A DNA stretch of 26,111 nt from Candidatus Rokuibacteriota bacterium (GTDB lineage Bacteria; Methylomirabilota; Methylomirabilia; Rokubacteriales; CSP1-6): NCBI GenBank assembly GCA_016184305.1, contig JACPCX010000026.1, positions 1-26,111 on the forward strand, given 5' to 3'. The notes under the pieces were generated by a model. That model was not told where the DNA came from. It ran no database searches and saw only the letters and a list, made by a program, of their open reading frames with translations. Shown here in pieces: positions 3,363-21,964 of this stretch (positions within the stretch are counted from its first letter, which is position 1; each line of letters begins with the position of its first letter). The position numbers and the translations under genes are program-made.

Positions 3363-3364
3363 GA

Positions 3365-4525: not shown

Positions 4526-4566
4526 TGCCGGGTGCCCTGCGCCGCGCCCCGGGACAGGCGCGCGCC

Positions 4567-5180: not shown

Positions 5181-5186
5181 GCTTCC

Positions 5187-5964: not shown

Positions 5965-6014
5965 TTGTCTTTCAGGGACTTCCACCGCGGCGCCTTCCAC
6001 GCCGCCAGGCCTGA

Positions 6015-6080
6015 GTGCCGGTTTTAGTGCCGGTTGCGCCCTCGGGATTGCTCTTCGCTCGCCGGCGGGCGCGCATGCGC
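6015..6080 (-). pseudogene. Extreme 3' remnant of a tyrosine integrase gene, with tandem GTGCCGGTT repeat
   Basis: 6015 GTGCCGGTTTTAGTGCCGGTTGCGCCCT aligns to 7453 GTACCGGTCTTGCTGTCGGTGGCGCCCT (EGATGTKTGT vs KGATDSKTGT). Confidence 0.65.
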
Positions 6081-6095
6081 GCACGGGAGAGGCCA

Positions 6096-6554
6096 TCAGG
6101 CTCGTCGGGGCCCTCGGGGCTTGAAGAGCATCTGGACTCTGCCGGAGCGGGCGATCCTTGCAATGAATGGCGGCTCGTGTCGGATGGAAAACCTGGCGAT
6201 GTGGGGCAAGGCGGCCACCACGGTCGCCGCCATCTCGGGACCAGTCAGATCGCCACGGGTCAGGACGAACGCACGGACGCCACCGGCGATGAGAGCCGCC
6301 TGTTCAGTGAGGCGGTACCGGATCTTCGCGTCCTTGGTGATTACCGCCCATCCCCGCCGCCCGACTTCAGGAAGCCACTCCTCGTCTCGAGCGTCCTGAG
6401 GGAAGTGGTCATCGTGGACGTGGACCTCGATACCCTGCATCCGGAGGGCGTCGGGGATGGCGTGTCGGCCGAGGGACCGATCGATGAAGAGAGGTGGCGG
6501 CTGGCTAGGCGGCTTCGAGCGGGAGCTCGCAGCGGAGGGCTTCCTGGATCTCAA
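6096..6554 (-). CDS. VapC45-like PIN toxin
   Basis: FIDRSLG...HDDHF...DEEWL...GWAVITKDAKIRY; overlaps the 3' end of the antitoxin. Confidence 0.88.
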   Translation of the reverse strand: MRSRKPSAASSRSKPPSQPPPLFIDRSLGRHAIPDALRMQGIEVHVHDDHFPQDARDEEWLPEVGRRGWAVITKDAKIRYRLTEQAALIAGGVRAFVLTRGDLTGPEMAATVVAALPHIARFSIRHEPPFIARIARSGRVQMLFKPRGPRRA

Positions 6555-7155
6555 GGGGACCTCGTTCGTAGTCCCGGGCGAGGTCGTCGACCGATTCCCC
6601 CGCCTTGAAGCGCTCCGCGATCACTGCCGTTGCGATTCCCGTCCCCGTCAACACCGGGCGTCCAAAGGAGACGAACGGATCGATCACGATGGCCCTCGGC
6701 TCTTCCGGCTCGCGCTTCCTGATGAAGGGAAAGAGGCGAATGGGCAGCCCCTTCAGATCCCAATCGATGCGGCGGAGGTAAGCCCTCACCAGCTCGCGCA
6801 TCGCCAGCTGCCCGTCCTGCGTCAAGTTGATGAGCAGGCCCGCCTTGTCGATGAAGAGATCCAGGCCGTCTGTCTCGAACCGGTATTCGGCGAGCGGATG
6901 CCTGGAGCTGTAATGCCGTTCGAGGAACGCCACCGCCGAGCGCACCTTGCGAAGGGAGATCTCGTGCTGGCGACGGATGGCCTCGAGGATGTGCGCCTCC
7001 ACCAGATTGACGAAGGACAGCACCGGCCACTCTGGCTGGGGTAGGCGGATGACGGGTCTGAAGAACTCCCGGCCCCTGGCGGTCGGGTAGAACCGTCCGA
7101 GAACCCACGACCTCAGGGTCGCCGTGGGCATCCGAAGATACCTTGCCGCGTCCAT
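6505..7155 (-). CDS. VapB45/Rv2018-like antitoxin (HTH + DUF433); true start probably further upstream (~7224-7232)
   Basis: AARYLRMPTATLRSW, LSFVNLVEAH, IDPFVSFGRP..GTGI...RFKAGES; the family-like GRDPREIPAY lies in frame upstream of ATG 7155. Confidence 0.88.
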   Translation of the reverse strand: MDAARYLRMPTATLRSWVLGRFYPTARGREFFRPVIRLPQPEWPVLSFVNLVEAHILEAIRRQHEISLRKVRSAVAFLERHYSSRHPLAEYRFETDGLDLFIDKAGLLINLTQDGQLAMRELVRAYLRRIDWDLKGLPIRLFPFIRKREPEEPRAIVIDPFVSFGRPVLTGTGIATAVIAERFKAGESVDDLARDYERGPLEIQEALRCELPLEAA

Positions 7156-7439: not shown

Positions 7440-7832
7440 TCATTGGGACGTGGTACCGGTCTTGCTGTCGGTGGCGCCCTTGCGTGCGGAGTTCGCGAGC
7501 CGCTCGACTGCCGTCCGCATGTGGTCCGGGCTCAGGTGCGCGTACCGCTGGACCATCACCTGGGTCTTCCAGCCTCCCGCCCGCTGTACCGTGTAGAGGT
7601 TCACGTCGGCCATCGCCGGCCGCTCGCGCTGGATGAGCTTGGGGCAGCATTCCTGTCGCGCCTTGCGGGCGTCTCGCACCTCGGCGCGCCTGGCCTTGTG
7701 CTCCTCCCCGGCGGCCGGCTTCGAGTCGCCGCTCGGCTGCCGGTGGTCGTGGCCCAGGGAGCAGGCCCACCGGATCCACCATTGCCCGTCCCGCTCGAAC
7801 ACGCCGCTGACCTTCGGCCCCCGTGTCGTCAT
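7440..7832 (-). pseudogene. Tyrosine integrase with in-frame internal deletion
   Basis: N-terminal arm-binding-like GVFERDGQWWIRW is joined at ~7620 to C-terminal AMADVNLYTVQRAGGWKTQVMVQRYAHLSPDHMRTAVERL; core-binding domain and HxxR missing; GGAGG RBS. Confidence 0.85.
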
Positions 7833-7883: not shown

Positions 7884-8366
7884 TCACTGGTCACGCGTCC
7901 CGCGCCGGCGCGTCCAGAGCCGTGGGTCGAAGCTGAAGGGCCGCGGCGTGCCGACCCGGACCGTCCGGAAGGCCGGGTGCAGCGGGTTGACGACGAAGTT
8001 CCGCTCGTGGGGAATGATCGCGGATGGCACGGCGAGCACCGCGGTCTCGCGCGCCCGCGCCCAGGCCGTGCCGAGGTCGGTGACCGCGGCCGGCGCGGGC
8101 ACCGACCGCCAGTCCGGCGGCAGCTCGCGGGCGGAGACGTCGCGGACGCGCAGGGTGTCCGGGATCTCCGCCGGCGTGGCCATCCACTCCCCCTGCACGT
8201 GCTCCACGTCCGCGTGCACCAGGATCTCCAGCGCCGCCAGCGAGAGCGTGGCGGAGGCGTAGACGAGGGGCACCCCGGGCCAACCCCACCGCCCGCCCCA
8301 CTGGCGCGCGCCCTCGCCATCGAAGGCGACATGGGGCGCGCGCGCGAGTCGCCAGACCCGGGTCAG
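7884..8366 (-). CDS. RES-domain toxin (NAD+-consuming family)
   Basis: VWRLA..FDGEGARQWGGRW..VYAS..LAALEILVH..LAVPSAIIPHERNFVVNPLHP..FDPRL; start placed at the CTGA overlap. Confidence 0.92.
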   Translation of the reverse strand: MTRVWRLARAPHVAFDGEGARQWGGRWGWPGVPLVYASATLSLAALEILVHADVEHVQGEWMATPAEIPDTLRVRDVSARELPPDWRSVPAPAAVTDLGTAWARARETAVLAVPSAIIPHERNFVVNPLHPAFRTVRVGTPRPFSFDPRLWTRRRGTRDQ

Positions 8367-8818
8367 CTGTAGATCCCGCGCGCCAGCCGCTGCAGGATCG
8401 TCTCGACCTCGCGCGCCCCGACCTCGGTGGAAAGCAAGTGCAAGGGCGCCGCGCCGGCGAGCGCGCGGTTGGGAGCGCGCAGCCACCCCGCGGCGCGCTC
8501 CGGCGCGCCGAGCACCTCCTCGGCGAGGGCCCCGATGCGCGCGAGCCGCAGCAGCCGATCGGACTCGTCGGGCGGCAGACGCCGCGCGAGCTTGCGGCGA
8601 GCCAGGGTGCGCCTGGGGATGCGCAGGACGGCGACGACCTCGTTCCCCGTCAACGCGTAGCGCGCCACGAGCGTGGCCAGCGCCGCATACGGCAGCCCGG
8701 CGCGGACCCGTTCGTGCAGCGTCTGGTAGGTCGCCGTCACCTCGCGCATTCCGAGCGATCGGCCCATCACCGCCGCCATCTGCCGCGCCGTCACCGCCCC
8801 CGCCGCCGAGCGTGCCAT
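8363..8818 (-). CDS. Xre/MbcA/ParS antitoxin
   Basis: VRAGLPY, IPRRTLARRK, ESDRLLRLARI, WLRAPNRALAGAAPL, VETILQRLARGIYS. Confidence 0.93.
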   Translation of the reverse strand: MARSAAGAVTARQMAAVMGRSLGMREVTATYQTLHERVRAGLPYAALATLVARYALTGNEVVAVLRIPRRTLARRKLARRLPPDESDRLLRLARIGALAEEVLGAPERAAGWLRAPNRALAGAAPLHLLSTEVGAREVETILQRLARGIYS

Positions 8819-9156: not shown

Positions 9157-9945
9157 TCAGCCGCGCCGGCTGGCCGGCCCGTCCGGCTCCGCCGCGAGGC
9201 CGCGCATCCGGAACACGCGATGCGGGTGGCGAAACCCGCGTAGGTGCATGCTGCCCACCAGCTCCGCGCACACGTGGCCCTCGACCGCCGCCATGACGCG
9301 CTCGCAGACGAGGGTCTCGGCGGCATGCGCCCGCCCGCAGAGGCGCGAGGCAAGGTTGGTGACGCTGCCAATGGCCGCGTAGTCCCAGCGGTCCTCGGTG
9401 CCGATAAGGCCCACGGTGGCGAACCCGTGGCTGACGCCCACGCCCAGGCTGAGCGCGGCGCCGTGCTGACGCCAGCGATGGGCGAGCGCCGCCACGGCGG
9501 ATTGCGCCGCCAGGGCGAGCGATACCGCGCGGAGCTGCGGGTCCGGGACCGGGACCGGGTCGTTGAAGAACGCCATGATGCCGTCGCCTGCGAAGCGCTC
9601 GAGCATGCCGCCGTGGTCCTCGACGAGCCGGCCCACCGCGCGGTGATAGTCGCGCAGGACGGCCATCACGTCCTCGGGCTCGGCACCCTCGGAGAAGGCC
9701 GTGAAGCCGCGCAGGTCGAAGAAGGCCACCGTCACCTCGCGGCGATGGCTGAGCAGCGCCGACTCATCGGCGGCCAGGACCAGCTCGCGCGGGGGCGACG
9801 AGACGAATCGCCGCAGCCGGTCGATGACGGCGGGTAACCTGTCTGGTGGCTCCACGCCATCCGGCGGCACGAGTGCCGGGTAGGCGTAGCCGTTGCGTCC
9901 TGACTGCCGGCGCTCAACCTGAGTGGTGCTGTGCATGTCGGGCAT
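9157..9945 (-). CDS. Stand-alone class III adenylate/guanylate cyclase-domain protein
   Basis: FFDLRGFTAFSE, ERFAGDGIMAFF, GSVTNLASRL; start at ATG 9945 after GAGGAG, downstream of the sigma54 promoter. Confidence 0.9.
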   Translation of the reverse strand: MPDMHSTTQVERRQSGRNGYAYPALVPPDGVEPPDRLPAVIDRLRRFVSSPPRELVLAADESALLSHRREVTVAFFDLRGFTAFSEGAEPEDVMAVLRDYHRAVGRLVEDHGGMLERFAGDGIMAFFNDPVPVPDPQLRAVSLALAAQSAVAALAHRWRQHGAALSLGVGVSHGFATVGLIGTEDRWDYAAIGSVTNLASRLCGRAHAAETLVCERVMAAVEGHVCAELVGSMHLRGFRHPHRVFRMRGLAAEPDGPASRRG

Positions 9946-9972
9946 GGTCGATCTCCTCGTGCACTTCTTATC

Positions 9973-9987
9973 GCAAGAGGAGTGCCA
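9973..9987 (-). promoter_or_regulatory. Sigma54 -24/-12 promoter for the cyclase gene
   Basis: TGGCAC-TCCTC-TTGC, exact consensus spacing. Confidence 0.88.
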
Positions 9988-9992
9988 CGTCA

Positions 9993-10085
9993 TACGCCTT
10001 TGAAAACATATACTTGCAGTCGACATCGCGAGTAATTGCGCAGAGATAGATCATTTCTCTTGAGCAATTGACCAATTTCTCGATC
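9993..10085. promoter_or_regulatory. AT-rich enhancer region: IHF-like site and candidate activator-binding repeats
   Basis: TTTCAA-AGGC-GTA (minus strand, 10005..9993) resembles WATCAANNNNTTR; GATCATTTCTC at 10049 and GACCAATTTCTC at 10070 are 21 bp apart. Confidence 0.5.
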
Positions 10086-10098
10086 CTGGTGCCAAGGC

Positions 10099-13000
10099 AT
10101 GAGTATGCAGACCCAGGCCGAGATCCTTGGACGCGGCCCGGCTATCCAGGCCGTCCGGAAGTCGATACAGCGGCTTCTCGACCGGCTGCAGGACTCACCG
10201 CGGCCGCCGGCCGTGCTGATCGAGGGCGAGACCGGGACGGGCAAGGGCCTGGTCGCTCGCCTCCTCCACGAGCGCGGCCCGCGCGCGGCGGGGCCGTTCG
10301 TGGACGTCAACTGCCCGGCGATCCCGGACCAGCTGCTCGAGAGCGAGCTGTTCGGCTACGAGCGCGGTGCGTTCACGGACGCCAAGCGCAGCAAGCCCGG
10401 GCTGCTCGAGAGCGCTCACCGCGGGACGATCTTCCTGGACGAGATCGCCCTGCTCCCCGAGGGGCTGCAGGCCAAGCTCCTCAAGGTGCTCGACGAGCGC
10501 GTGGTGCGGCGGCTGGGCGCGACGCGCGGCGAGCCAGTCGATTTCTGGCTGCTGGCGGCCACGAATGCCGATCTCGTGGCCGCGGTGCGCCGTGGGCGCT
10601 TCCGCGAGGATCTCTACCAGCGGCTGGCCGTGGTCCGGCTCGGGCTGCCGCCGCTGCGCGCGCGGGGCGAGGACATCGTGCTCCTGGCCGAGCACTTCCT
10701 GGCCCGCGCCGCGGCGGAGCACGGGCTGCCGCCGCGCGCGCTCTCGGACGACGCGCGCGAGGCGCTGCGGCGCAATGCCTGGCCGGGCAATGTCCGCGAG
10801 CTCGCCAACGTGATGGAGCGGGTGGCGCTCCTCGCGGAGGGAGACCGGGTGACGGCGAGCGCGCTCGACCTGCGCCAGCCAGCGGCCGAGCCGCAGCCGG
10901 GGCCGGGCGAGGCGGCGCCCGTGGGGCGGACCCTCGAGGCGGTCACCCGCGATCATCTGCGCGCGGCCATCGCCGAGGCCGGGGGTAATCTCTCTCGCGC
11001 GGCGAGCGCGCTCGGGATCTCGCGCAACACGCTGCGCGCGCAGATCCGGCGGCTCGATGTCGCGGTCACACCCACCCGCGGCCGGCCCCGCCGGCAGTTT
11101 CCCGCCGCCCCTGCGCCGGCCGCGGCCCTGCCGGCGCCCGAGCCCCCGCGCCTGCCGGCCGCCACCCCGGCGGTGACCGTGCGCTGGGAGCGCCGGCGGC
11201 TGACCTTGCTCCGCGCCGCGCTCGGGCCCGAGGGGGCGGGCGCGCTTGATCCGGGGCGCGCCCTGGAGGGCATCGTCGACAAGGTGCAGGCGTTCGGCGG
11301 CCGCATCGACGAGCTGTCGACCGCGTCGGTGGGCGCCGTCTTCGGGCTCCAGTCCGGGGACGATCCCTCCCGCCTCGCCGTGCAGGCGGCGCTGGCCGTC
11401 GTGAAGAGCCTCGAGCGGCTGCGCGTGGCCGCCGATCCGCTGCAGGTGCGCGTGGCGCTGCACACCGGCACGATGCTGGTCGGGCACATCGGCGCGGAGG
11501 TCCAGCTCGAGCGGTCCGAGAAGGCGGCGGCCACCGCCGTCCTCGACGAGGTTGCCGAGGCCTGCGCGCCCGGCATGGTCGCGGTGAGCCCGGTGACGGC
11601 GGCCTTCCTCGAGCGGCGATTCGACCTGCGCCCGCTCGGCGGACCGCCCCCGGTGGCCCAGGCGGTGAGCGGACCCGAACGGCGCGGCTTCGAGACGCTC
11701 CGGCGGCAGAGCGCGCTGATAGGCCGCGAGCAGGAGCTCGGGCTGCTGGTCTCGCGCTGGCGTGCGGCGCAGGACGGCCAGGGCCAGCTCGTGCTGCTGG
11801 TCGCGGAGCCGGGTATGGGCAAGTCGCGCCTGGTGTGGGAGTTCCTGGGGTCCGAGCACGCGCGCAGCGGGCACGTGCTCGACCTGCACGCGAGCCCGAC
11901 CGGACAGTCGTCGGCCTATGGCCCGCTCCTGGACCTTCTTCGCCGGTACTTCGAGATCGCCTCCGAGGACGACGACCGCGGTGTCCGCGCCAAGGTTGCG
12001 GCCAAGCTGGCGGTGCTCGCGCCGGAGGGGCCCGACCCGGCGCCGGCGCTGCTCGCCTTCCTCGGCCTGGAGCCCGGCGATCCGGAGTGGTCGGATCTGA
12101 CCGCCCCCGACCGCGCGCGCGAGGTCCGCGACGCCCTGCGCCGCCTGCTGCTGGCCGAGGTCAAGGCCCGGCCCGTGCTGCTGGTGATCGAGGACCTGCA
12201 CTGGCTCGACGCCGGCTCGCGTGAGCTCCTGGAAGCGCTCGCCGAGGGGCTCGCCGCGATCCCGCTGATGCTGCTGGTGACCTCGCGGCCGCCCATCGCG
12301 CACGGCTGGGGCACGGTCGGCGTCCTCACCCAGTTCTCGCTGGCTCCGCTCGGCCGCGAGCGGGCCCGCGAGCTCCTCGACGCGCTGCTGGGGGCGCACC
12401 CGAGCCTGGATGCCCTGCGCCGCAGCATGCTCGACCGCGCCGGGGGCAACCCGTTCTTCCTCGAGGAAAGCGTGCGCGCGCTCGTCGACAGCGGCGCGAT
12501 CGCCGGCGCGCCCGGGGACTATCACCTGGCGTCCAGCGCGCTCGCCCTGCCGCTGCCGCCCACGGTCGAGGAGCTGGTGGCGGCGCGGGTCGCGAACCTG
12601 CCCGCGCCGCTGCGGCAGATCCTGGAGGCGGCCGCCGTGCTCGGCCGCGAGACGCCGCGCTCGGTGCTGGCGGCGGTGCTGGGCGAGCCGGCGGCGGTGG
12701 TGCGCGCCAAGCTGGCCGAGCTGCGCCGCCTCGACCTCGCCGCCGAGATCGGCGCGGGCGACGATCCGATGGTGCGCTTCCATCACCCACTCCTGCACGA
12801 GGTCGCGCTGGCGCGCGTGACGGACGAGGCGCGCCGGGCCATCCACGAGCGCGCGTACACGACACTGCGGGCCCGCGCGCGGCCGGGCCTCGCCGACGAC
12901 ACGGAGCAGCTCGCGCGGCACGCGTTCCACGGCGGGCGCTGGGACGAGGCGGTCGAGCTGCTGGAGGCGGCGGCGCGCACCGAGGCGCTGCGGGCCACTC

Positions 13001-14190
13001 ACGCCGAGGCGGCCGCCCACCTGGAGATGGCCCTCGTGGCGCTGGGCCACCTGCCCGAGACCCCGGAGCACGTCGCGCGCGGCATCGACATCCGGCTCAC
13101 GCTCAAGTCGAACCTCACCGAGATCGGGGCGCACGCGCGTGTGCACGAGCACCTCGAGGCGGCGGAGGCCGCCGCCGCGCGCCTGGGCGACGTGGGGCGG
13201 CTGGCGCGGGCGGCGGCGTTCCTCAGCGACTACCATCGGCTGCTGGGGCAGCGGGCCGCCGCCCGTCGCCAGAGCGAGCGGGCGCTCGATCTCGCCCTGG
13301 CGGCGGGCGACGCGCGCCTGCAGGTGGTCGCCGGCACCTACCTCGGCATGGTGCTGCACGGCGAGGGCGATTACCCCGCGGCGATCGCGTGCTTCCGGCG
13401 CAACCTGGCGAACCTCACCGGGGCGATCGCGCGCGAGCGCCTGGGCACGACGGGGCTGCCGGCGATCCACTCACGGACCTGGCTCGCGTGGGCCCTGTGC
13501 GAGACGGGCGACTTCGGCGAGGCCGAGCGCGCCGCCGAGGAGGCGATGCGCATCGCGGCCGAGCTGCCGCAGCCGATTCACGCGGTGGTCGCGTCCGCGG
13601 GGCTGGGCCGGGTGCAGCTGCGGCGCGGGCATCCGGAGGCGGCCCTGCCCGTGCTCGCCCAGGGGCTCGAGCTGTGCCGCCGCCACGGCATCGCTTTCTG
13701 GCTGCCCGGCCTGGCGTCGGCCCTGGGGCTGGCGCTCGTGCGCGCCGGCCGGCGCGAGGAGGGCCTCGTCTTGCTGGAGGAGAGCGTGCACCGCGGCCAG
13801 AGCGACCGCGCGCTCGCCGGGCAGGCGCAGCGCGAGACGTGGCTGGGCGAGGGCTACCTGCTCGCCGGCCGCCTGGACGACGCGCGCGCGGCGGCGGGGC
13901 GGGCGATCGACATGGCGGGCCGGTACGAGCAGCGCGGCACGCTGGTCTGGGCGCGCTGGCTGCGCGCGGAGATCGCCAGGCGGTCCGGGAACGGCCGCGC
14001 CGCCGTCGAGGAGCATCGCGCCGTGGCGGAGGCCGCGGCCGCGCTGGGGATGCGGCCGCTGGCCGCGCTGGCCGGGTTGGGGCTCGCGCGGGCGCTCGCG
14101 AGCCTCGGCGAGACGGCCGAGGGCCGCCGGGTCGAGGATCAGGCGCGGGCGGCGCTCGCCGCGCTCGAGATGGCGGCCCCGCTCGACTGA
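10099..14190 (+). CDS. Sigma54 activator AAA+ / Fis-type HTH / degenerate class III cyclase / STAND (AAA_16-like) NTPase / TPR fusion protein
   Basis: GETGTGK, ESELFGYERGAFTDA, FLDEI, RFREDLY, WPGNVREL; GGNLSRAASALGISRNTL; FGGRIDEL..VFG and VRVALHTG; LIGREQEL, AEPGMGKS, LLVIEDLHW, GGNPFFLEE; helical TPR-like tail. Confidence 0.93.
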   Translation: MSMQTQAEILGRGPAIQAVRKSIQRLLDRLQDSPRPPAVLIEGETGTGKGLVARLLHERGPRAAGPFVDVNCPAIPDQLLESELFGYERGAFTDAKRSKPGLLESAHRGTIFLDEIALLPEGLQAKLLKVLDERVVRRLGATRGEPVDFWLLAATNADLVAAVRRGRFREDLYQRLAVVRLGLPPLRARGEDIVLLAEHFLARAAAEHGLPPRALSDDAREALRRNAWPGNVRELANVMERVALLAEGDRVTASALDLRQPAAEPQPGPGEAAPVGRTLEAVTRDHLRAAIAEAGGNLSRAASALGISRNTLRAQIRRLDVAVTPTRGRPRRQFPAAPAPAAALPAPEPPRLPAATPAVTVRWERRRLTLLRAALGPEGAGALDPGRALEGIVDKVQAFGGRIDELSTASVGAVFGLQSGDDPSRLAVQAALAVVKSLERLRVAADPLQVRVALHTGTMLVGHIGAEVQLERSEKAAATAVLDEVAEACAPGMVAVSPVTAAFLERRFDLRPLGGPPPVAQAVSGPERRGFETLRRQSALIGREQELGLLVSRWRAAQDGQGQLVLLVAEPGMGKSRLVWEFLGSEHARSGHVLDLHASPTGQSSAYGPLLDLLRRYFEIASEDDDRGVRAKVAAKLAVLAPEGPDPAPALLAFLGLEPGDPEWSDLTAPDRAREVRDALRRLLLAEVKARPVLLVIEDLHWLDAGSRELLEALAEGLAAIPLMLLVTSRPPIAHGWGTVGVLTQFSLAPLGRERARELLDALLGAHPSLDALRRSMLDRAGGNPFFLEESVRALVDSGAIAGAPGDYHLASSALALPLPPTVEELVAARVANLPAPLRQILEAAAVLGRETPRSVLAAVLGEPAAVVRAKLAELRRLDLAAEIGAGDDPMVRFHHPLLHEVALARVTDEARRAIHERAYTTLRARARPGLADDTEQLARHAFHGGRWDEAVELLEAAARTEALRATHAEAAAHLEMALVALGHLPETPEHVARGIDIRLTLKSNLTEIGAHARVHEHLEAAEAAAARLGDVGRLARAAAFLSDYHRLLGQRAAARRQSERALDLALAAGDARLQVVAGTYLGMVLHGEGDYPAAIACFRRNLANLTGAIARERLGTTGLPAIHSRTWLAWALCETGDFGEAERAAEEAMRIAAELPQPIHAVVASAGLGRVQLRRGHPEAALPVLAQGLELCRRHGIAFWLPGLASALGLALVRAGRREEGLVLLEESVHRGQSDRALAGQAQRETWLGEGYLLAGRLDDARAAAGRAIDMAGRYEQRGTLVWARWLRAEIARRSGNGRAAVEEHRAVAEAAAALGMRPLAALAGLGLARALASLGETAEGRRVEDQARAALAALEMAAPLD

Positions 14191-15965
14191 GCGGCCGGCG
14201 CCTTGGGCTCGGGCGCGCGCCGCTCGACGCGCTGGCCCGGCGCGTGCCCAACCAGCTCACCGCGGGCGTCTACCCGTCGCGCGAGGGCGGCTACGAGTAC
14301 GCGGTGATGCTCCTCGTATCGCATCCGGTGCCCGCGCACCCCGGCCTCGCCGTGCGCTCGGTGAGCGGACCGGTCATCATGCGGCGAAAGGACGGGTCGC
14401 CGTTGCGGCTGGTCACCGCCGAGCTCGGGCGGTCGTGGCGGGCGCAGCTCGACTGGGCGGTGCCGAACGCGCAGCTCGACGCCCTCACGCACGGGGGCGC
14501 GCCGATGACGGGCGCCGACGTCGTCGTCGGGATCATCGATCTGGCAGCCCTCGATTTCTACCATGCGGACTTCAGGCGGGCCGACGGCACCACGCGCGTC
14601 GCGTACCTGTGGGATCAGGAGCCCGGGCTCGTCCAGGCGGTGCCGGGCGCGGCGGCCCTGGCGCCCGGCGTTGCGTACGGGGTCGAGTACACCGCGGCCC
14701 AGATCGACGCCGAGCTCGCCCAGTTCAACCCGCCCGGCTCGCCGGCCTACACCATCGTCCCCCACGCGCCGCCGCCGCCGCCGTTGAGCGGCGTGAACGG
14801 GCACGGCACGGCGGTGACGAGCTGCGCGGCCGGCAACGGCCGCGCGAGCCGGGGGCAGTTTCGAGGCGCGGCGCCGGGGGCGGACATCATCTACGTCCGG
14901 CTCACGCGGCTCGACCCCGAAGGGGTGACGGTGGACCACACGCAGGTCTTCGATGCCTTCGAGTACATCTTCGCCAGGGCGGCGCAGCTGCGGACCGCCC
15001 AGGGCCAGCCCAAGCGCGGCTGCGTCGTGAGCATGAGCCTCGGCGACCTGCAGGGGCCGCACGACGGGACCACCCTGGGTGAGCTGCACCTGGACACGCT
15101 GCTGGTCCAGCCCGGCCGGGCCGTCACCGTGCCCGCCGGCAACTGGAACGGGAACTGGCGCCATGCCCGCGGGCAGGTCGCGGAAGGGCAGACGGTCGAC
15201 GTGCCCATCGAGTTCGGCGGCGGCGCGCGATCGAGCGACGCCGTCGAGCTCTGGTACGAGGGCGGCGACGTCTTCGAGGCGTCGTTCATCGCGCCGGGCG
15301 GCACGACCCTCGGGCCCCTCATGCCCTTGGGCAGCGACACGAAGAATGTGGGCAATGACGTGATGGCCACGCTGTCGTCGCAGTCGGGCATGTTCGTCAA
15401 CGGCGACAACCGCATCTCGGTCATCATGATGGTGCCGACCGGGAAGAAGATCCCCCTCGGTCCCTGGACGCTCCGGCTGCGCGGCGTGACGGTCACGACG
15501 GGGACGTTCCAGGCCTGGCTCGACCGGAACAACCCGTACTCGAATTTCCCGCCGCCCCTGCGCACCGAGGACGACGGCACGCTCGGCGTCCCCGGCAGCG
15601 CGCTCGGGCCCATCACGGTCGGGGCGCACGACAAGCAGGCCGGCGCCGCGGACGAGTCCGGCTTCAGCGGCCGCGGCCCGACGCGGGACGGCCGGAGCAA
15701 GCCCGATCTGCTGGCCGCCGGCGAGATCATGACGGTGGCCCTCGCGCAGAATCGCAACGCGCCGCCGGCCGCGTCCGAGTACGTCGGCGGGCGCTACGGC
15801 ACGAGCTACGCCACGCCACTCGTGGCGGGGGCCTGCGCCCTGTTCTTCGAGTGCCTCGGGCCGACGACGACGAGCGACGAGCTCAAGCGCCTGCTGCAGC
15901 AGCGCGCGGGGCCCTCCAAGGCCGGCGGGGCGGGCATCCTCAGGGTGGGAACCACCTGCCGGTGA
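14187..15965 (+). CDS. S8 subtilisin-like serine peptidase (CspA-like, with internal insertion domain); start uncertain (CTG 14187 or GTG 14244)
   Basis: Triad VGIID / NGHGTAVTSCAAGNG / GTSYATPLVAG; oxyanion PAGN; FSGRGPTRDGRSKPDL; no signal peptide. Confidence 0.9.
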   Translation: MSGRRLGLGRAPLDALARRVPNQLTAGVYPSREGGYEYAVMLLVSHPVPAHPGLAVRSVSGPVIMRRKDGSPLRLVTAELGRSWRAQLDWAVPNAQLDALTHGGAPMTGADVVVGIIDLAALDFYHADFRRADGTTRVAYLWDQEPGLVQAVPGAAALAPGVAYGVEYTAAQIDAELAQFNPPGSPAYTIVPHAPPPPPLSGVNGHGTAVTSCAAGNGRASRGQFRGAAPGADIIYVRLTRLDPEGVTVDHTQVFDAFEYIFARAAQLRTAQGQPKRGCVVSMSLGDLQGPHDGTTLGELHLDTLLVQPGRAVTVPAGNWNGNWRHARGQVAEGQTVDVPIEFGGGARSSDAVELWYEGGDVFEASFIAPGGTTLGPLMPLGSDTKNVGNDVMATLSSQSGMFVNGDNRISVIMMVPTGKKIPLGPWTLRLRGVTVTTGTFQAWLDRNNPYSNFPPPLRTEDDGTLGVPGSALGPITVGAHDKQAGAADESGFSGRGPTRDGRSKPDLLAAGEIMTVALAQNRNAPPAASEYVGGRYGTSYATPLVAGACALFFECLGPTTTSDELKRLLQQRAGPSKAGGAGILRVGTTCR

Positions 15966-17953
15966 GCGCCACGGCGGCGCCGCGGCGCGTCCTGGTGCCG
16001 GCCGCCGGATCGGGGCAGAGCAACAACCTGATCCGCGCGCTGCGCGCCGCCGGCCTGCCCCTGTGGATCCTGGGCGTCCACCACGACCGCTTCTACCTGA
16101 CGCAGTCGCCGGCCGACCGGAACCGGACGCTGCCGCCACCGTCGAGTCCGGGCTTCGACGACGCGCTGTGCGGCGTGGTCGAGGAGGAGCGGGTGGACCT
16201 GCTCATCCCCACGCGCGACTGGGAGGTCGCGCGCTTCGCGGCACTCGCCCCGCGGCTGGCGGGCCGCCTGTACATGCCGCCGATCGAGACGGTGCTGCTC
16301 TGCCAGGACAAGCAGCGCCTGTGCGACCTGCTCGAGGCGCGCGGGCTGCCGGTGCCGCGCACGGTGCCGGTCGGCCGCCTCGAGGACGTGGACCGCGTGT
16401 TCGCGAGGTTCCCGCGCGGCGCGACGCTGTGGTGCCGCAGCCGGTTCGGCTCGGACTCGCGCGCGGCCACGCCCGTGCGCACCCCGGACCAGGCGCGCGC
16501 CTGGATGAGCTACTGGGAGGACATGCGCGGCTTTCCGGTGAGCTCGTTCACGCTCGGCGAGTATCTGCCGGGCCGCGACTTCGCCTGCCAGAGCCTCTGG
16601 CAGGCGGGCCGGCTCGTGCTCGCGAAGACGTATGAGCGGCTGGACTATATCGGCGGCAGCTCCCGCCCGAGCGGCGTGGCGTCGCGGGTCGCCCTGGCCA
16701 AGAACGTGTGCGAGCCCCGGGTGCTGGAGATCGGCTGCGCGGCCATCCGCGTCGCTGATCCCGGCGCCACCGGCGCCTTCGACGTCGATCTCAAGTGCCG
16801 GGCGGATGGCGAGCCGGCGGTGACGGAGCTCAACGCCGGGCGATTCCTGTCGAGCCAGACGATCTTCGACTTCACGGGGGCGCACAACCTCACGGGTGTC
16901 TTCCTCCGGCTCGCCGCCGGCGAGCCGGTGGTCCTCGATCCCGTCTACGATACGGGGGTCGGGTGGTACATGGTGCGCGACGTGGACCTCGTGCCCGGCA
17001 TCGTGCACGAGCGCGACCTGCTCCGCGTCACGGGCGCCGGCGGGGGCGGGATACCCGACCGCGAGCGCCACGCACGCCTGAGGTCGTCGCCGACGATCGG
17101 GGACGCGCCACGGCGACGGGCGCATCCTGGAGCCGCCGGACCTGTAGGAGACGTCTCTCGATCGCCGGTACCGCGATCGCGCGCCGCGGATCCGGGTGGG
17201 CGACGACGGCGACGAGCCTCTCGAGATCGACGGCCGGCGCGCGACGCTGCCGCGGCCCGGCCAGCTCGGCCCGCTGGGCGGCGTGGGCAAGCGGGGGGAC
17301 GAGGCACGCGAGCTGCGCGCTCGCACCCGCGCGGCGCGGTGGTGCTCTCGGCGACCGGCCTCGTCAAGCGGTTCGGCGCCCTCGTCGCGGTGAACCGCGT
17401 CGAGCTCGACGCGCGGGTCGGCGAGGTCCACTCCGTGATCGGCCGGAACGGCGCCGGCAAGACGACGACGCTGCGGAGCATCATGGGCGTCGCGCGGGCG
17501 CGGAGCGGGCGGATCCTGGTCGATGGGACCGAGGCGCGCTCATGGCGGTCCGCCACGGAAGGCCGGGCCCGTGGAGCATCGCCCGGGTCCTGGAGCTGCT
17601 GCCCAAGCTCGGCACGCTCGCCGACCACCGCGGCGAGCACCTCTCGGGAGGCGAGCGCAAGATGCTCGCGATCGCCCGCGGCCTGCTCGCCAACCCGCGG
17701 CTCCTGCTCCTCGACGAGCCGCTCGAGGGGCTCGCGCCCTCCGTGGCGGACACCATCCTGGACGCGCTGGCGGCGATGCGCGGCGAGATGGCGATCCTGC
17801 TGGTCGAGCAACGGGCGAGCCTTGTGCTCCCGCTCTGCGAGTCGGCGCTCATCCTCAACAACGGCGCCGTCGCGTACAGCGGCGACGCCCGCGACCTGCT
17901 GGCCCGCGAGCGGGACCTCCAGCAGCAGCTCGGCGTGTGACCGTCATGCCTGA
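15962..17953 (+). CDS. ATP-grasp enzyme (CarB/PylC-like); domain ends ~17030 and the ORF reads through into unrelated gene fragments
   Basis: GTGA overlap; RVLVPAAG, VDLLIPTRDWEV, CQDK, LPVPRT, EYLPGRDF, TELNAGRF; low-complexity out-of-frame sequence after HERDLLRV. Confidence 0.8.
   Translation: MSATAAPRRVLVPAAGSGQSNNLIRALRAAGLPLWILGVHHDRFYLTQSPADRNRTLPPPSSPGFDDALCGVVEEERVDLLIPTRDWEVARFAALAPRLAGRLYMPPIETVLLCQDKQRLCDLLEARGLPVPRTVPVGRLEDVDRVFARFPRGATLWCRSRFGSDSRAATPVRTPDQARAWMSYWEDMRGFPVSSFTLGEYLPGRDFACQSLWQAGRLVLAKTYERLDYIGGSSRPSGVASRVALAKNVCEPRVLEIGCAAIRVADPGATGAFDVDLKCRADGEPAVTELNAGRFLSSQTIFDFTGAHNLTGVFLRLAAGEPVVLDPVYDTGVGWYMVRDVDLVPGIVHERDLLRVTGAGGGGIPDRERHARLRSSPTIGDAPRRRAHPGAAGPVGDVSRSPVPRSRAADPGGRRRRRASRDRRPARDAAAARPARPAGRRGQAGGRGTRAARSHPRGAVVLSATGLVKRFGALVAVNRVELDARVGEVHSVIGRNGAGKTTTLRSIMGVARARSGRILVDGTEARSWRSATEGRARGASPGSWSCCPSSARSPTTAASTSREASARCSRSPAACSPTRGSCSSTSRSRGSRPPWRTPSWTRWRRCAARWRSCWSSNGRALCSRSASRRSSSTTAPSRTAATPATCWPASGTSSSSSACDRHA
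17109..17330 (+). pseudogene. 5' fragment of an amidohydrolase_2 family gene
   Basis: Unlisted frame: HGDGRILEPPDL*ETSLDRRYRDRAPRIRVGDDGDEPLEIDGRR resembles the D.D.H..EPPDLW..yl...yrdra N-terminus; TAG at 17145 replaces the expected Trp. Confidence 0.7.
17339..17940 (+). pseudogene. Chimeric livG/livF-type ABC ATPase remnant
   Basis: LivG-type start VLSATGLVKRFGALVAVNRV..GEVHSVIG joined to LivF-type GRNGAGKTTTLRSIMG; deletion/frameshift ~17535; LivF-type LSGGERKMLAIAR..LLLLDEPLEGLAP in another frame. Confidence 0.82.
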
Positions 17954-18261
17954 AGGGCTCGAGATACGGCGCGCGGGGCGGTGAGGAGCGGCCCCCGAGG
18001 GCCGCGACGCGACCATCTAGGGGCCAGGCCGGCCTTTCACGGTCCGCTCAGCGGGTCTCCTCGATCGACGGCGCCTGCCGCCAGGGCAGCCGTCTGCGCG
18101 GCTCACGCAGCCCTTGACGGCGCCCCTGTCCCGGGAGCAGGATCGCCGCAGGACCCGGATCAGAGCCGGGCGGTCCCGGCTCCAGGGAGGGCTCCGGGGC
18201 CGGCGGCTCGACGACGCTGGGGTCGTTCAGGGGGTCTGGAGGCCCGCTGCATGGGGCCGCG

Positions 18262-18353
18262 TGATGCGAACTGGCGGTCATGTTCCCTCTGGGCCGCCGA
18301 GCGGCTCACGCGAAGTGTTCGGGTGGACCGACGACCGCGGCGTCACGACCTGA
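18262..18353 (+). pseudogene. Possible signal peptide + DUF4124-like remnant
   Basis: LAVMFPLGRRAAHA then, after a 1-nt shift, EVFGWTDDRGVT (resembles VYxWxDxxGv). Confidence 0.35.
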
Positions 18354-18453
18354 ACCGATCGGCTCGACAGCGTCCCCGAGCGCGATCCGCCCAGGGGCAG
18401 CGCCAGCGCCGATCATCCCTGCACATTCGCATGAGTCCGAAAGGAGTCTCTCG

Positions 18454-19473
18454 ATGAGCCGATGTCGTTCGGTCGCCGTGTTCGTCTTCGCCGTCGCCGC
18501 CGCGCTGGCGGGCGGCTCCGCGGTGCTCGCGCAGGGCGACATCCGCAGCCCGCTGCCGGCGCCGGTGAAGCTCAAGCAGGGCATGCTCAACGTGCCCGCG
18601 CTGTCGCCGCTGTGGCTGCTGCCCGAGTTCGCGGCCAAGTACAACGTGCAGATCGAGACGGTGATGTTCCAGCGCTTCGCGGATGCCCGCACCGCGCTCG
18701 CCTCCGGCGACATCGACCTCACCGCCTTTGGCCCCCAGGATATCTCGCTGGCGCTGGGACAGGGCGCGCGGTCCATGGTCGGCGTGGCCGGCGTCGGCTC
18801 CGGCAACGACTGCCTGATCGTCCGCAAGGGGGACGACATCAAGGACTGGAGCGCGCTGCGCGGCAAGGCGATCGGGGTGGGCGCGGGGTCGATCTCGTGG
18901 CTGAAGTTCGCGGCCTCCGTGAAGGAGCACGGGCTCGAGTACGGCGGTCTCAAGATCGTCAACATCATGGGCGGGGGCGGCAACTATCTGAAGGCGCTGC
19001 AGGCCAAGGAGATCGACATGGCCGTGGTCTGGCAACCGTTCTGCGCCCAGGGCGTCGTCGACGGCTTCGCGCAGTATCCCACCCTCGATCACAATCGCTC
19101 GAAGACGGTGGGCGGGCTCATCTCCGTGCTCGCGGTGAACCGTGGCTTCATGGACAAGAATCGCGACGCGGTGCAGCGGCTCGTGGTGGCCTACCTCGAC
19201 GTGCTGAAGGTCGCCCAGGCCGATCAGCAGCGCTGGGCGAAGATCTACGCGGAGAAGGCGGGGCTGCCCCTGCCGGTGGCGGTGGAGTCGATCCGCATCA
19301 CGAAGCTCGATCCCACGCTGCCGCTGGAGTCCATCAAGCGCATCTCGAAGTTCCTGTCGGACAACGGCGTCATCGCTCGCGACGTGTCGAGCGACCTCGC
19401 GCACTCCTACACGTTCGACTTCCTGAGCCGCGCCACGGGGAAATCGCCGGCCGAGCTGGGTCTGAACCAGTAG
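18454..19473 (+). CDS. NitT/TauT/SsuA-type ABC substrate-binding protein
   Basis: AAAGGAG RBS before ATG 18454; signal peptide ending AVLA|Q; ALASGDID, LRGKAIGV, EIDMAVVWQP. Confidence 0.92.
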   Translation: MSRCRSVAVFVFAVAAALAGGSAVLAQGDIRSPLPAPVKLKQGMLNVPALSPLWLLPEFAAKYNVQIETVMFQRFADARTALASGDIDLTAFGPQDISLALGQGARSMVGVAGVGSGNDCLIVRKGDDIKDWSALRGKAIGVGAGSISWLKFAASVKEHGLEYGGLKIVNIMGGGGNYLKALQAKEIDMAVVWQPFCAQGVVDGFAQYPTLDHNRSKTVGGLISVLAVNRGFMDKNRDAVQRLVVAYLDVLKVAQADQQRWAKIYAEKAGLPLPVAVESIRITKLDPTLPLESIKRISKFLSDNGVIARDVSSDLAHSYTFDFLSRATGKSPAELGLNQ

Positions 19474-19496
19474 CGCGCGGCGCGGCCACGACGCGC

Positions 19497-20291
19497 ATGA
19501 CCGTCCGTCGCCTCGCGTGGGCGCTCGCGCTGCCGATCGCCCTCTTCGTCGTCTGGGACCTGGCCGTCCGGCAGCGATGGGTGGTGGAAGGCATCATCCC
19601 CGCGCCGGCGCAGGTGGCGGCCGCCTGGTACACGTGGATCTTCGGGGCGGCCACGACATCGCTCTCCCCCTACTCGGGCACGTGGCTGGCGAACGTGGCG
19701 CACTCCACGCGGCGGGTGATCGAGGGCTTCCTGCTCGCGGCCGCGCTGGGGATCCCGCTCGGCGTGTTCATCGGCTGGAACCGCGCGGTGGCGCGGGCGG
19801 TGGACCCGTCCATCCAGATGCTGCGCCCGATCCCCATCACGGCGTGGCTGCCCTTCGCCATCGCCGTCTTCGGCATCTACGACGCGAGCGCGCGCTTCTT
19901 GATCGGGCTGGGCGCGTTCTATCCGATCGTGGTCAACACCACGCATGGGGTGCGGGACACCAATCTCCTGCTGCTGCGGGCGGCGCGCATGCTCGGCGCC
20001 GGCCCCGCCGCGGTGCTCTTCAAGGTCGTCTTCCGCTCCGCGCTGCCTTCGATCTTCACCGGCCTGCGCCTCGGGATCGGCGTGGCGTGGACGGCGGTGA
20101 TCGTGGCCGAGATGATCGCGGTGAAGTCCGGCCTCGGCTACGTGCTGTGGGACGCCTACTACGTGGGACGGATGGACATCTGCGTGGCCACGATGTTCTC
20201 GGTGGGGTTGCTCGGCTTTCTCTCCGACCAGGTGATCCTGCGCGCCTCGCGGGTGGCGCTGCGCTGGCGCGCCCTCGAGGCGCACGGCTGA
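19497..20291 (+). CDS. NitT/TauT-type ABC permease
   Basis: LRPIPITAWLP, AARMLGA, ALPSIFTGLRLG, IVAEMIA. Confidence 0.93.
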   Translation: MTVRRLAWALALPIALFVVWDLAVRQRWVVEGIIPAPAQVAAAWYTWIFGAATTSLSPYSGTWLANVAHSTRRVIEGFLLAAALGIPLGVFIGWNRAVARAVDPSIQMLRPIPITAWLPFAIAVFGIYDASARFLIGLGAFYPIVVNTTHGVRDTNLLLLRAARMLGAGPAAVLFKVVFRSALPSIFTGLRLGIGVAWTAVIVAEMIAVKSGLGYVLWDAYYVGRMDICVATMFSVGLLGFLSDQVILRASRVALRWRALEAHG

Positions 20292-20295
20292 GCCG

Positions 20296-21093
20296 ATGGC
20301 GACCGCCGTCGAGCTTCGAGGAGTCGCCAAGGAATTCGCGGCGCGCGGCCGCCACGTGGTGGCCGTGGAGGCGATCGACCTCGCCGTCGCGCACAACGAG
20401 TTCGCGGCCATCCTGGGGCCGAGCGGCTGCGGCAAGTCGACGTTGCTGAACATGGTGGCGGGCTTCGAGCGGCCCACGCGAGGGCGGGTGCTCGTGGAGG
20501 GCGAGCCCGTGCAGGCGCCCCATCCGGGGCGCGCCGTCGTGTTCCAGGAGGCGGCCCTGTTCCCGTGGTACACCGTGCTCGACAACATCGCCTTCGGTCC
20601 CCGCACGCGGGGGACGCCGGCGGCGCAGTACCGCCCGCGCATCGACACGCTGCTCGATGTCATGGGGCTGCGCGGGTTCGAGCGTCACTACCCGGCGGAG
20701 CTGTCGGGCGGCATGAAGCAGCGCGTGGGCCTCGCGCGTGTCCTCATCATGGAGCCCGCGGTGCTGCTGATGGACGAGCCCTTCGGCAGCCTCGACGCCC
20801 AGACGCGCTCGGTCATGCAGGAGCTGCTGCTCACCGTGTGGGAGCGGCGGCAACAGACCGTGCTGTTCATCACGCACGACATCGAGGAGGCGCTGCTGCT
20901 GGCCGACACCGTGAGCGTCATGACCGCGCGCCCCGGGCGCATCAAGACGCGCATCGCCGTCGACCTGCCGCGGCCGCGCTCGCTGGAGGTCACCACCTCG
21001 CCGCCCTTCAACGATCTCAAGCGCCGGCTGCTGGCGCTCGTCCGCGAAGACACCTTCAACCCCGGAGCCGACCATGCCCCACGCGCGCGTTAA
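20296..21093 (+). CDS. NitT/TauT-type ABC ATP-binding protein
   Basis: GPSGCGKST, VVFQE, LSGGMKQR, LLMDEPFG, ITHD. Confidence 0.95.
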   Translation: MATAVELRGVAKEFAARGRHVVAVEAIDLAVAHNEFAAILGPSGCGKSTLLNMVAGFERPTRGRVLVEGEPVQAPHPGRAVVFQEAALFPWYTVLDNIAFGPRTRGTPAAQYRPRIDTLLDVMGLRGFERHYPAELSGGMKQRVGLARVLIMEPAVLLMDEPFGSLDAQTRSVMQELLLTVWERRQQTVLFITHDIEEALLLADTVSVMTARPGRIKTRIAVDLPRPRSLEVTTSPPFNDLKRRLLALVREDTFNPGADHAPRAR

Positions 21094-21964
21094 CAGTGTC
21101 AACCTCTTCTACGAGGAGACCGGTCAGGGTCTGCCCCTGATCTTCGTCCACGAGTTCGCCGGCGACAGCGCGAGCTGGCACCTGCAAGTGCGGTGCTTCT
21201 CGCGCCGCTACCGCACCATCGCCTACAACGCGCGCGGGTACCCGCCCTCCGACGTGCCCGAGGACCCGCGCGCCTACTCGCAGGACCAGGCCGTGGACGA
21301 CATCGTGGGCGTGCTCGATCACCTCGGCATCCCGAAGGCGCACGTGTGCGGGCTGTCGATGGGCGGCTATGCCTCGCTGCACTTCGGCCTGCGCTACCCG
21401 CAGCGCGCGTTGTCGATCACGGTGGCGGGCGCCGGCTACGGCAGCGTGCCCGCCGAGCGCGACAAGTTCCGCCAGGACTCGGGCGAGGTGGCGCGCCGCT
21501 TCGAGGCGGATGGCATGGCGAAGGTCGCGGAGTTCTACACCAAGGGCCCCACGCGCGTGCAGTTCATGGACAAGGACCCGCGGGGCTGGAAGGAGTTCTA
21601 CGACCAGTTCGCGGCGCAGTCGGCCGAGGGCCATGCCCGCACCATGCGCGGCGTGCAGATGTCGCGCCCGTCCATCTACGAGCTGGAGGCCGGGCTCGAG
21701 ACACTCGAGGTGCCCACGCTCATCGTCACCGGCGACGAGGACGATCCGTGTCTGGAGCCCGGCATCTTCATGAAGCGCAAGATCCGCTCCTCGGCGCTCG
21801 TCGTGCTTCCCAGGTCCGGGCACACGATCAACCTCGAGGAGCCCGAGGCGTTCAACCGCGCGCTGCTGGATTTTCTGACCGCGGTGGACGCGGGACGCTG
21901 GCCGCTGCGCAACCCGCTCTCGCAGACGGGCTCGGCCATCCTGCCGCCGCCGGGGAAGCCATGA
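21074..21964 (+). CDS. Alpha/beta hydrolase
   Basis: VHEFAG, GLSMGG nucleophile, GDEDD, GHTINLEEP. Confidence 0.93.
   Translation: MPHARVNSVNLFYEETGQGLPLIFVHEFAGDSASWHLQVRCFSRRYRTIAYNARGYPPSDVPEDPRAYSQDQAVDDIVGVLDHLGIPKAHVCGLSMGGYASLHFGLRYPQRALSITVAGAGYGSVPAERDKFRQDSGEVARRFEADGMAKVAEFYTKGPTRVQFMDKDPRGWKEFYDQFAAQSAEGHARTMRGVQMSRPSIYELEAGLETLEVPTLIVTGDEDDPCLEPGIFMKRKIRSSALVVLPRSGHTINLEEPEAFNRALLDFLTAVDAGRWPLRNPLSQTGSAILPPPGKP

Follow-up and report, generated by a model that had tools for sequence, protein, structure and literature searches.

A putative STAND-gated sigma-54 activator with a divergent cyclase and a rearranged peptidase/ATP-grasp cassette in Candidatus Rokuibacteriota

Introduction

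How is a sigma-54 activator controlled when no sensor precedes its motor domain, and which gene does it switch on? The question is raised by a locus on a contig of 26,111 bases (C156) from a Candidatus Rokuibacteriota bacterium of soil or groundwater, which was analysed over its entire length and is called the window here. It belongs to a metagenome-assembled genome of 3.2 Mb (88.8% complete, ~72% G+C) that also carries rpoN, on another contig (C168). The locus consists of four genes, namely an activator of the enhancer-binding protein (EBP) type fused to a STAND NTPase module, a divergent class III nucleotidyl cyclase, an S8 subtilase and an ATP-grasp ligase (Table 1). We lean, with modest conviction, toward reading it as a STAND-gated sigma-54 activator that switches on the divergent cyclase, accompanied by a rearranged peptidase/ATP-grasp cassette. 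Gene calls were set by codon-position G+C, and the relatives' proteins and related loci to which we compare the window are mostly labelled Candidatus Rokubacteria or Methylomirabilota.

Architecture and relatives of the activator

The activator (10099-14190, plus strand, 1363 aa) comprises, in this order, an EBP part, a helix-turn-helix (HTH), a pseudocyclase, an AAA_16 STAND NTPase and tetratricopeptide repeats (TPRs). Sigma54_activat (PF00158) covers residues 16-181 (E 5.4e-57) and HTH_8 residues 279-318 (E 2.2e-8), and the motifs of the motor domain can be read as GETGTGKG (Walker A), IFLDEI (Walker B) and GAFTDA. Since the AAA+ domain begins near residue 10, there is no N-terminal sensor. 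Behind the HTH, residues ~331-535 can be aligned with the cyclase domains of three cyclase-AAA_16-TPR paralogues encoded in the same genome. The AlphaFold model of this domain (pLDDT 89.1) has CyaB, CyaC and Cya2 as its best Foldseek matches (E ~1e-11), and both metal-binding Asp residues, the Asn and the Arg are missing from it, as they are in nine other aligned fusions. The class III cyclase fold is thus kept and the catalytic residues are lost, which makes this domain a pseudocyclase. It is followed by AAA_16 (PF13191, residues 540-724, E 1.6e-24), whose Walker A (GMGKS) and hhhhED motifs were read from the translation, and by TPR_12 and other TPR families (residues ~946-1194).

The initial annotation had described an EBP with intact Walker A/B and GAFTDA but no N-terminal sensor, which Pfam and the motif check bear out, and a C-terminal pseudocyclase-STAND-TPR module, which alignment, model, Foldseek and Pfam agree on. 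The four genes, the NTPase motifs, the dead cyclase-like domain, the sigma-54 promoter and a GTGA overlap that it listed are all present. Judged from its sequence, the activator is a real STAND-coupled sigma-54 EBP; that it senses a ligand and oligomerises is what we infer by analogy with the STAND family.

With bacterial EBPs such as NtrC, PspF, NorR and RtcR, the activator has in common the AAA+ domain, Walker A/B, a GAFTGA-type loop, the Fis-type HTH and a divergent sigma-54 promoter. Unlike them, it is devoid of an N-terminal regulatory domain, and the presumed regulatory module (~1000 aa) lies C-terminal to the HTH. The fifth residue of its loop is Asp instead of Gly, as in 22 of 22 fusions (Walker B is likewise kept in all 22 and Walker A in 21, with a 5'-truncated gene call as the one exception), and all NCBIfam EBP equivalogs remain below their cut-offs. 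Its other half may be likened to the STAND transcription activators MalT, AfsR and the LAL family, which includes mycobacterial cyclase-ATPase-HTH proteins. These combine the same P-loop STAND NTPase with a C-terminal helical-repeat sensor and a DNA-binding output, and a cyclase-type domain stands upstream of the NTPase in the activator as it does in the genome's paralogues. However, its output is a sigma-54 AAA+ motor, whereas those proteins act through a LuxR or SARP HTH on sigma-70 promoters, and its cyclase domain is catalytically dead. Residues 411-1198 also align with TIGR03903, the 'TOMM system kinase/cyclase fusion protein' (E 7e-91), but the score (305.7) stays under the cut-off (705.75), no kinase domain was listed, the EBP being present instead, and no TOMM genes were seen nearby.

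The three paralogues (G000, C115:~3100-6150, C113:~25980-29000 and C103:~15970-18920) each have, by eye, a Cys-rich zinc-ribbon-like N-terminus, followed by a live-looking cyclase domain, AAA_16 and TPRs.

Far from being a peculiarity of one contig, the fusion belongs to a large and uncharacterised family, with its named relatives in Rokubacteria/Methylomirabilota. Among the 120 best database proteins (which include the window's own activator), 118 align over at least 92% of the 1363 aa at 40-70% identity, with lengths of 1135-1412 aa, and their most specific name is 'sigma 54-interacting transcriptional regulator' or something similarly generic. At E <= 1e-100, 184 of the 251 representative genomes of the phylum match, the window's own included (two candidates per genome were scored, and three of the genomes are unpublished). 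Many of these 184 hold full-length matches of ~40-45% identity, often two or more per genome. A full-text literature search found no description of the pairing of activator and divergent sigma-54 promoter or of the ATP-grasp/STAND linkage described below. P0008-P0010 are activators 58-70% identical to the window's, and when metagenomes were scanned with the activator as query, no more than two short contigs came up, both at 98% identity and belonging to the same population.

A recurring sigma-54 promoter and its presumed target

In the window, 27 nt separate the sigma-54 element from the cyclase ATG downstream of it, and the distance from the element to the activator start is 112 nt. In the family, we searched the 300 bp upstream of 25 fusion genes, keeping GG and GC fixed and allowing up to two mismatches. 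An outward-facing element was found upstream of 16 of the 25 genes (shuffled sequences gave 0.8 on average and never more than 4), and inward-facing ones in only two. In 13 of the 16 positive loci, the window among them, the outward element lies 99-116 bp from the start codon. Across 28 loci, 13 of 23 intergenic promoter-like matches fall in the region divergent from the fusion. This recurrence supports, as a rule for the family, that the activator drives the divergent gene.

The gene at the receiving end differs among loci. Mostly it is c2, a protein of 150-230 aa with a hydrophobic N-terminus and helical repeats, often encoded in tandem pairs and matching no Pfam family (examples are L009:576-1079 and L011:6021-6722, both on the minus strand); at some loci, a regulator of the MucR type or a YdjC-like enzyme takes its place. 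In the ESM Atlas, c2 falls only in unnamed Methylomirabilota/Rokubacteria clusters, as does the small protein c15 introduced below. Since the window alone has a cyclase at this promoter, the cyclase would be a lineage-specific target. The claim that a sigma-54 promoter drives the cyclase survives in part: the element is there and its position recurs in the family, while the cyclase as its target is found only here.

What does this target look like? Its long open reading frame (ORF) spans 9157-10026 on the minus strand, and because the promoter lies inside that ORF, the start must be the downstream ATG (Table 1). The resulting protein stands alone, with a short N-terminus and no sensor domain. 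CyaB (3r5g, E 2.8e-29) is the nearest solved structure, followed by the guanylyl cyclase Cya2 (2w01, E 1.3e-24). The motifs FFDLRGFT, GDG and TNLASRL align to both, and we take them to carry both metal-binding Asp residues and the transition-state Asn and Arg. By these motifs, the divergent cyclase is catalytically complete, and it is the presumed sigma-54-dependent target. Compared with the class IIIb enzyme CyaB and with Cya2, however, it has no sensor domain and carries R/A at the two positions that presumably set the substrate specificity of class III cyclases, where CyaB has K/T and Cya2 E/G. Lys with Asp or Thr at this pair denotes ATP, and Glu with Cys, Ser or Gly denotes GTP.

Cyclases with 47-55% identity were also met near other ATP-grasp genes (L134, L052) and on contig C106 of the same genome. 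They were set aside as other cyclases and not the same locus: those of L134 and C106 have response-regulator-like N-termini and that of L052 a different N-terminal extension (by eye).

Several smaller features surround the promoter. An inverted repeat between promoter and activator (Table 1) is a candidate upstream activating sequence (UAS) for the activator's HTH, which we offer as a lead only. Palindromes between promoter and fusion start recur by eye upstream of the fusion genes at L016, L051, L013, L026, L012 and L034 (GGTGGTCAA...TTGAACACC, CTGGTAA...TTACCAG), and so does a sigma-70-like promoter for the fusion gene, TTGAAC-N18-TAAGAT. A second sigma-54-like element with one mismatch (TGGTACCGGTCTTGCT) is located at 7451-7466 on the plus strand of the window, inside a minus-strand ORF and with no evident target gene.

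The ATP-grasp cassette

The remaining two genes raise the question of what a protease and a ligase have to do with the activator. Relatives of the ligase occur in 94 of 251 genomes of the phylum, and a scan of 185,579 species genomes yielded 246 of them. Linkage was assessed in the best 80 of these 246: in 60, a STAND-TPR gene lies no more than 5 kb from the ligase 3' end, 12 were untestable (too near a contig end) and 8 were negative, the latter mostly labelled Burkholderiales or beta-proteobacterium. With 60 of 68 testable loci linked, proximity to a (pseudo)cyclase-STAND-TPR gene is nearly obligate for the ATP-grasp gene. The arrangement is convergent in 59 of the 60, with the ligase upstream in the other one, and the median gap is 554 bp. 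It is the STAND module to which the ligase is linked, and not the EBP as such: 30 of the partners are EBP fusions, 17 have a live-looking cyclase and 13 are undetermined. A second sample of 40 phylum loci (29 linked, 9 untestable, 2 negative) is not independent, because it was drawn from the same genomes, and a first batch of 20 loci, picked with both genes already on one contig, was left out of the counts.

Two further genes often belong to this neighbourhood. One encodes c15, a small conserved protein found in 51 of 63 ligase loci, usually in the gap between ligase and STAND gene. Its helical core (LDxHxAEALxLEIRRLAxRxG) is preceded by a tail that may be basic or acidic, and the C-terminus is short and variable, with SA or SG as a frequent ending (examples are L013:5580-5759 on the minus strand, L022:9142-9363 and L028:11035-11232 on the plus strand). 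A match of one member to STAS (E 0.009) was not trusted, and a complex prediction of ATP-grasp and c15 from the same locus, both entered as alignments, scored 0.01. The other gene encodes an HExxH protein of ~400 aa, weakly M4-like (PF01447, E 2e-4), that often lies just upstream of the ligase; with one query, a peptidase was found directly upstream in 21 of the 60 linked loci. The association of an ATP-grasp enzyme and a small protein with STAND proteins of both live and dead cyclase type points to an unrecognised accessory system.

In the window, the place of the peptidase is taken by the S8 subtilase. S8 relatives occur in 11 of 251 genomes and adjoin the ligase in just two settings, the window and genus g3 (G073-G075). 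In g3, c2 comes first, then an amidohydrolase, S8, the ligase and c15, with the convergent fusion gene behind them, and the S8 proteins are larger (~900-1000 aa) and carry a CARDB domain. The S8 protein thus looks like a local substitute for the M4-like peptidase, restricted to these lineages. Its D/H/S triad aligns to that of CspB (4i0w, E 1.2e-26), the nearest solved structure, and no signal peptide was seen by eye. With the Csp germination subtilases and IetS/IteS it has the S8 fold and the triad in common, but it scores far below the NCBIfam cut-offs (CspBA, E 5e-30, 103.9 versus 1250), has no spore context and has no IetA partner.

The ligase is harder to name, as Pfam holds no family for it, nor for c2 or most c15 members. 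NCBIfam gives a PRK12767-like match (E 6e-15), with which a profile search of solved structures agrees, the best being the CPS-like 2pn1, with weak matches to RimK (3vpd, E 4e-6) and LysX (E 1e-3). Its model (pLDDT 88.1) matches biotin carboxylases, GAR synthetases, 2pn1 and L-amino-acid ligases with a Foldseek probability of 1.0. None of the 59 residues that are invariant in the family alignment has been lost from the window's ligase, and its dN/dS of ~0.30 against the copy in another genome, G166, shows purifying selection. No second ATP-grasp was found in the window's genome. Protein and peptide ATP-grasp ligases (RimK, which acts on S6, LysX, which acts on LysW, and the L-amino-acid and graspetide ligases) have the same fold, and the relatives' order of a ligase gene and then a small conserved protein is reminiscent of them. 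The window's enzyme, by contrast, best matches 2pn1, generic carboxylases and GAR synthetase, and the small protein is missing from the window.

These data also bear on a different explanation, in which ATP-grasp and peptidase mature a ribosomal peptide (c15-like in the relatives) to yield an exported natural product or signal, and the activator regulates genes nearby without sensing that product. A conserved helical core with a short variable C-terminal tail is what c15 would bring to such a role, a peptidase directly upstream of the ligase recurs in many loci (those counted above, and S8 here and in g3), and the STAND part resembles a TOMM-named family. Yet c15 was found in neither the window nor its genome, and neither a conserved exporter (cluster map) nor a signal or leader-cleavage motif (c15 sequences as read) was seen. 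The ligase, moreover, is by sequence of the CPS-like and generic ATP-grasp kind and not of the RimK/graspetide type, and the TIGR03903 score falls well short of its cut-off, with no kinase domain listed. We therefore consider a peptide-product cluster unlikely.

Ligase followed by a convergent cyclase-STAND-TPR gene was also observed at L113, L119, L125, L127, L128, L136, L137 and L140. These eight loci are labelled Burkholderiales, beta-proteobacterium or, in one case, Alphaproteobacteria (bin labels that may be unreliable), and their longer spacers of 0.6-4 kb may hold further genes.

A proposed mechanism

How could these parts work together? In the mechanism that we favour, the TPR/STAND module would control the assembly of the AAA+ domain into an active ring, presumably upon binding a ligand. 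The assembled activator would bind the intergenic repeat and drive the sigma-54 promoter, which lies 112 bp ahead of the activator gene, so that the stand-alone class III cyclase is expressed and a burst of cyclic nucleotide may follow. The S8 protease and the ATP-grasp ligase would represent this lineage's rearranged version of the cassette of peptidase, ATP-grasp and c15, which is found with (pseudo)cyclase-STAND-TPR genes irrespective of the output domain that they encode. This cassette may serve to make, modify or remove whatever the TPR sensor reads.

To our knowledge, known sigma-54 activators are controlled via N-terminal domains or partner proteins, and placing a STAND/TPR module, a kind of module also present in MalT and in NLR immune receptors, after the HTH would be a new means of gating the AAA+ ring. 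The family would also offer a tractable bacterial model for the coupling of one NTPase switch to another.

A bolder version goes one step further and remains doubtful in our eyes. Here, peptidase, ATP-grasp and c15 would form an intracellular signal generator whose product is read by the TPRs of the adjacent STAND protein, giving a two-part module with two outputs that would be widespread in Rokubacteria. Equally speculative is the assignment of these outputs, in which a live cyclase domain would lead to a cyclic nucleotide, and a dead cyclase with a fused EBP to sigma-54 transcription. In the window, the two outputs would come together again, as the version that acts through transcription turns on a live cyclase encoded by a gene of its own. 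If correct, this would amount to a new principle, in which an NLR-like oligomerisation switch, and not phosphorylation or a small N-terminal sensor, controls a sigma-54 activator.

Weighing the locus: rearrangement or decay?

The favoured mechanism, i.e., a STAND-gated activator switching on the cyclase beside a rearranged cassette, has to be measured against the genomic context of the locus. The initial annotation had regarded the four genes as a self-contained set. No intact copy was found elsewhere, and one relative, G166, holds a decayed relic (L027 8497-11593, on G166:C3). In it, a piece of the cyclase (window 9258-9616) is joined directly to the final ~440 bases of the activator (window 13660-14096), S8 is absent, and an intact ligase with 76% DNA identity follows behind ~1 kb of unrelated DNA. 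Three genomes of the same genus have only partial activator matches (best E 1e-148 to 1e-163), and the S8 and ATP-grasp queries returned no match in them. As for gene neighbourhood, it is thus the pairing of activator and divergent sigma-54 promoter and that of STAND gene and ATP-grasp that are conserved, and not the four-gene unit. Nor did the other proposed couplings all hold: the GTGA overlap of S8 stop and ATP-grasp start is present at 15962-15965, whereas the supposed overlap of activator stop and S8 start is not, the earliest S8 start (GTG 14244) lying 53 nt downstream of that stop. An operon of S8, ATP-grasp and activator is not the usual layout either, given the 59 convergent loci.

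Several observations weigh against our preferred reading. By itself, the promoter of the window exceeds chance only modestly (2 elements at up to one mismatch versus 0.40 expected), and at up to two mismatches there is no excess at all (6 versus 7.3). Nine of the 25 fusions have no promoter at up to two mismatches, and a cyclase is the divergent target only in the window, bar the fragment in the G166 relic. With R/A at its specificity pair, the cyclase does not allow its product to be named. With activator, S8 and ligase on one strand, the window has a gene order that was seen at none of the 60 linked loci, and c15 (by profile search), the M4-like peptidase and c2 were not found in the window or in the 88.8%-complete genome. 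Finally, homologous ligases end at about residue 355, while the window's frame, which had been thought to end near 17030, has no stop there and stays open to 17953.

Could the locus simply be a rearranged copy, eroded in part, whose genes have ceased to function together in this organism? The relic, with its cyclase fragment joined to the C-terminal end of the activator and its missing S8, fits this idea, as do the poor matches in the same-genus genomes and the absence of c15, c7 and c2. Toxin-antitoxin modules flank the locus, the ligase has no stop and the ABC ATPase gene downstream of it is disrupted. Synteny is also broken: G221 (L151, on G221:C187, same genus) is 96-98% identical to window 18191-23979, a stretch with an ABC transporter, two alpha/beta hydrolases and part of an amidase gene, and is unrelated to the left of 18191. 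This position appears to be a recombination breakpoint bounding a variable region. G223 matches window 1-2823 at 99% identity, up to the end of its contig, and together the two comparisons place the locus in a variable stretch. On the other hand, the ORFs of 1363, 573 and 262 aa are open and hold all catalytic motifs, and the ligase has kept its 59 family-invariant residues at the low dN/dS given above.

Metagenomic contigs speak against decay as well. From four studies of groundwater and soil, contigs with 90-100% identity tile the locus and bridge both the cyclase-activator junction (9694-10242) and the S8-ligase junction. They show the arrangement of the window at 98-99% identity, which indicates that it is conserved across the population; for runs X5-X7, only those parts of the locus with listed contig cover were interpreted. 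The window's sigma-54 element is kept in contigs from other studies, too. The same material sheds light on the open end of the ligase. An X1 contig, otherwise identical over 15228-17468, has 8 extra bases behind 17107, and X7 has 3 and 5 extra bases at 17106 and 17109. With these 8 bases, the ligase would end at TAG 17145-17147, as the frames read. In all four runs, furthermore, the contigs have a joint with additional letters at 17537/17538. This position falls within a gene for a LivF-like ABC ATPase (17260-17940, plus strand) that is split over two frames near 17440-17500 in the window, which thus seems to lack DNA there (an estimated ~90 bases). Since the missing stop and the ABC disruption coincide with the indel and the joint, they may be assembly errors or strain variants. 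All in all, we judge a decaying locus to be improbable.

The defence analogy and the neighbouring genes

The initial annotation saw in the locus an NLR-like receptor that converts ligand sensing into sigma-54 transcription of a second-messenger enzyme. The STAND-coupled EBP and the recurring promoter remain from this picture, whereas the four-gene set, the operon layout and the link to defence did not find support. As for the last of these, an Avs- or NLR-like sensor of a phage protein would induce a Pycsar-like cyclase, with S8 as an IetAS-like effector. The STAND-TPR architecture and the position of an accessory locus beside toxin-antitoxin modules agree with this, and among the PADLOC models, PycC matches the cyclase (best E 2.7e-21) and IetS weakly matches S8 (E 4e-6). 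These matches are at domain level, however, with PycC about as good as the generic Pfam cyclase family. The activator matches RtcR models via its AAA+ domain alone and no Avs or NLR model, and the IetS match is partial (residues 430-541), with NCBIfam IteS at 22.6 versus a cut-off of 900. No IetA model was matched by any of the seven proteins scanned with PADLOC, and no Pycsar effector was found among the four locus genes (PADLOC) or the other ORFs of the window (Pfam). Moreover, the family is very common in one phylum (184 of 251 genomes), often with several copies, and its usual target is a small membrane or helical protein, a pattern that looks more like housekeeping signalling than defence. 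The analogy with Avs and IetAS hence comes down to generic domain matches, and a role in anti-phage defence seems very unlikely to us.

Scans for sigma-70 promoters and terminators gave nothing useful within the locus. A Pfam scan of the window's other ORFs did confirm the toxin-antitoxin hotspot that had been proposed beside it, consisting of DUF433/DUF5615, DUF433-HTH and RES/Xre modules. Their coordinates are listed in Table 1 along with those of the locus itself.

Table 1. Positions of the features discussed, numbered along the window
Feature	Position	Strand	Remarks
Class III nucleotidyl cyclase, 262 aa	9157..9945	-	PF00211, E 3.5e-16; start ATG 9945, ribosome-binding site GAGGAG
Sigma-54 -24/-12 element TGGCACTCCTCTTGCG, TGGCAC-N5-TTGCG	9987..9972	-	1 mismatch to TGGCAC-N5-TTGCW
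Inverted repeat AATTGCGCA / TGAGCAATT, 9-nt arms 18 nt apart	10034..10069		Candidate enhancer (UAS)
Sigma-54 AAA+ domain, AAA lid and Fis-type HTH_8 of the activator	10099..11088	+	Pfam and motifs
Pseudocyclase domain of the activator, residues ~331-535	11089..11703	+	Alignment, model, Foldseek
AAA_16 (STAND-type P-loop NTPase), then TPRs to the C-terminus of the activator	11704..14190	+	PF13191, TPR_12
S8 subtilase, 573 aa, Csp-like	14244..15965	+	PF00082, E 1.9e-24
ATP-grasp ligase core, 360 aa	15962..17041	+	Frame open to 17953 in the window
Indel site	17107..17147	+	X1 and X7 contigs: 8 extra bases behind 17106-17109
DUF5615 (PIN-like) gene and DUF433 gene	4591-5180	-	Toxin-antitoxin-like module
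DUF433-HTH_66 gene	6505-7155	-	Toxin-antitoxin-like module
RES toxin	7884-8372	-	Paired with Xre/MbcA/ParS antitoxin
Xre/MbcA/ParS antitoxin	8363-8818	-	Sigma-70-like promoter at 8855-8827

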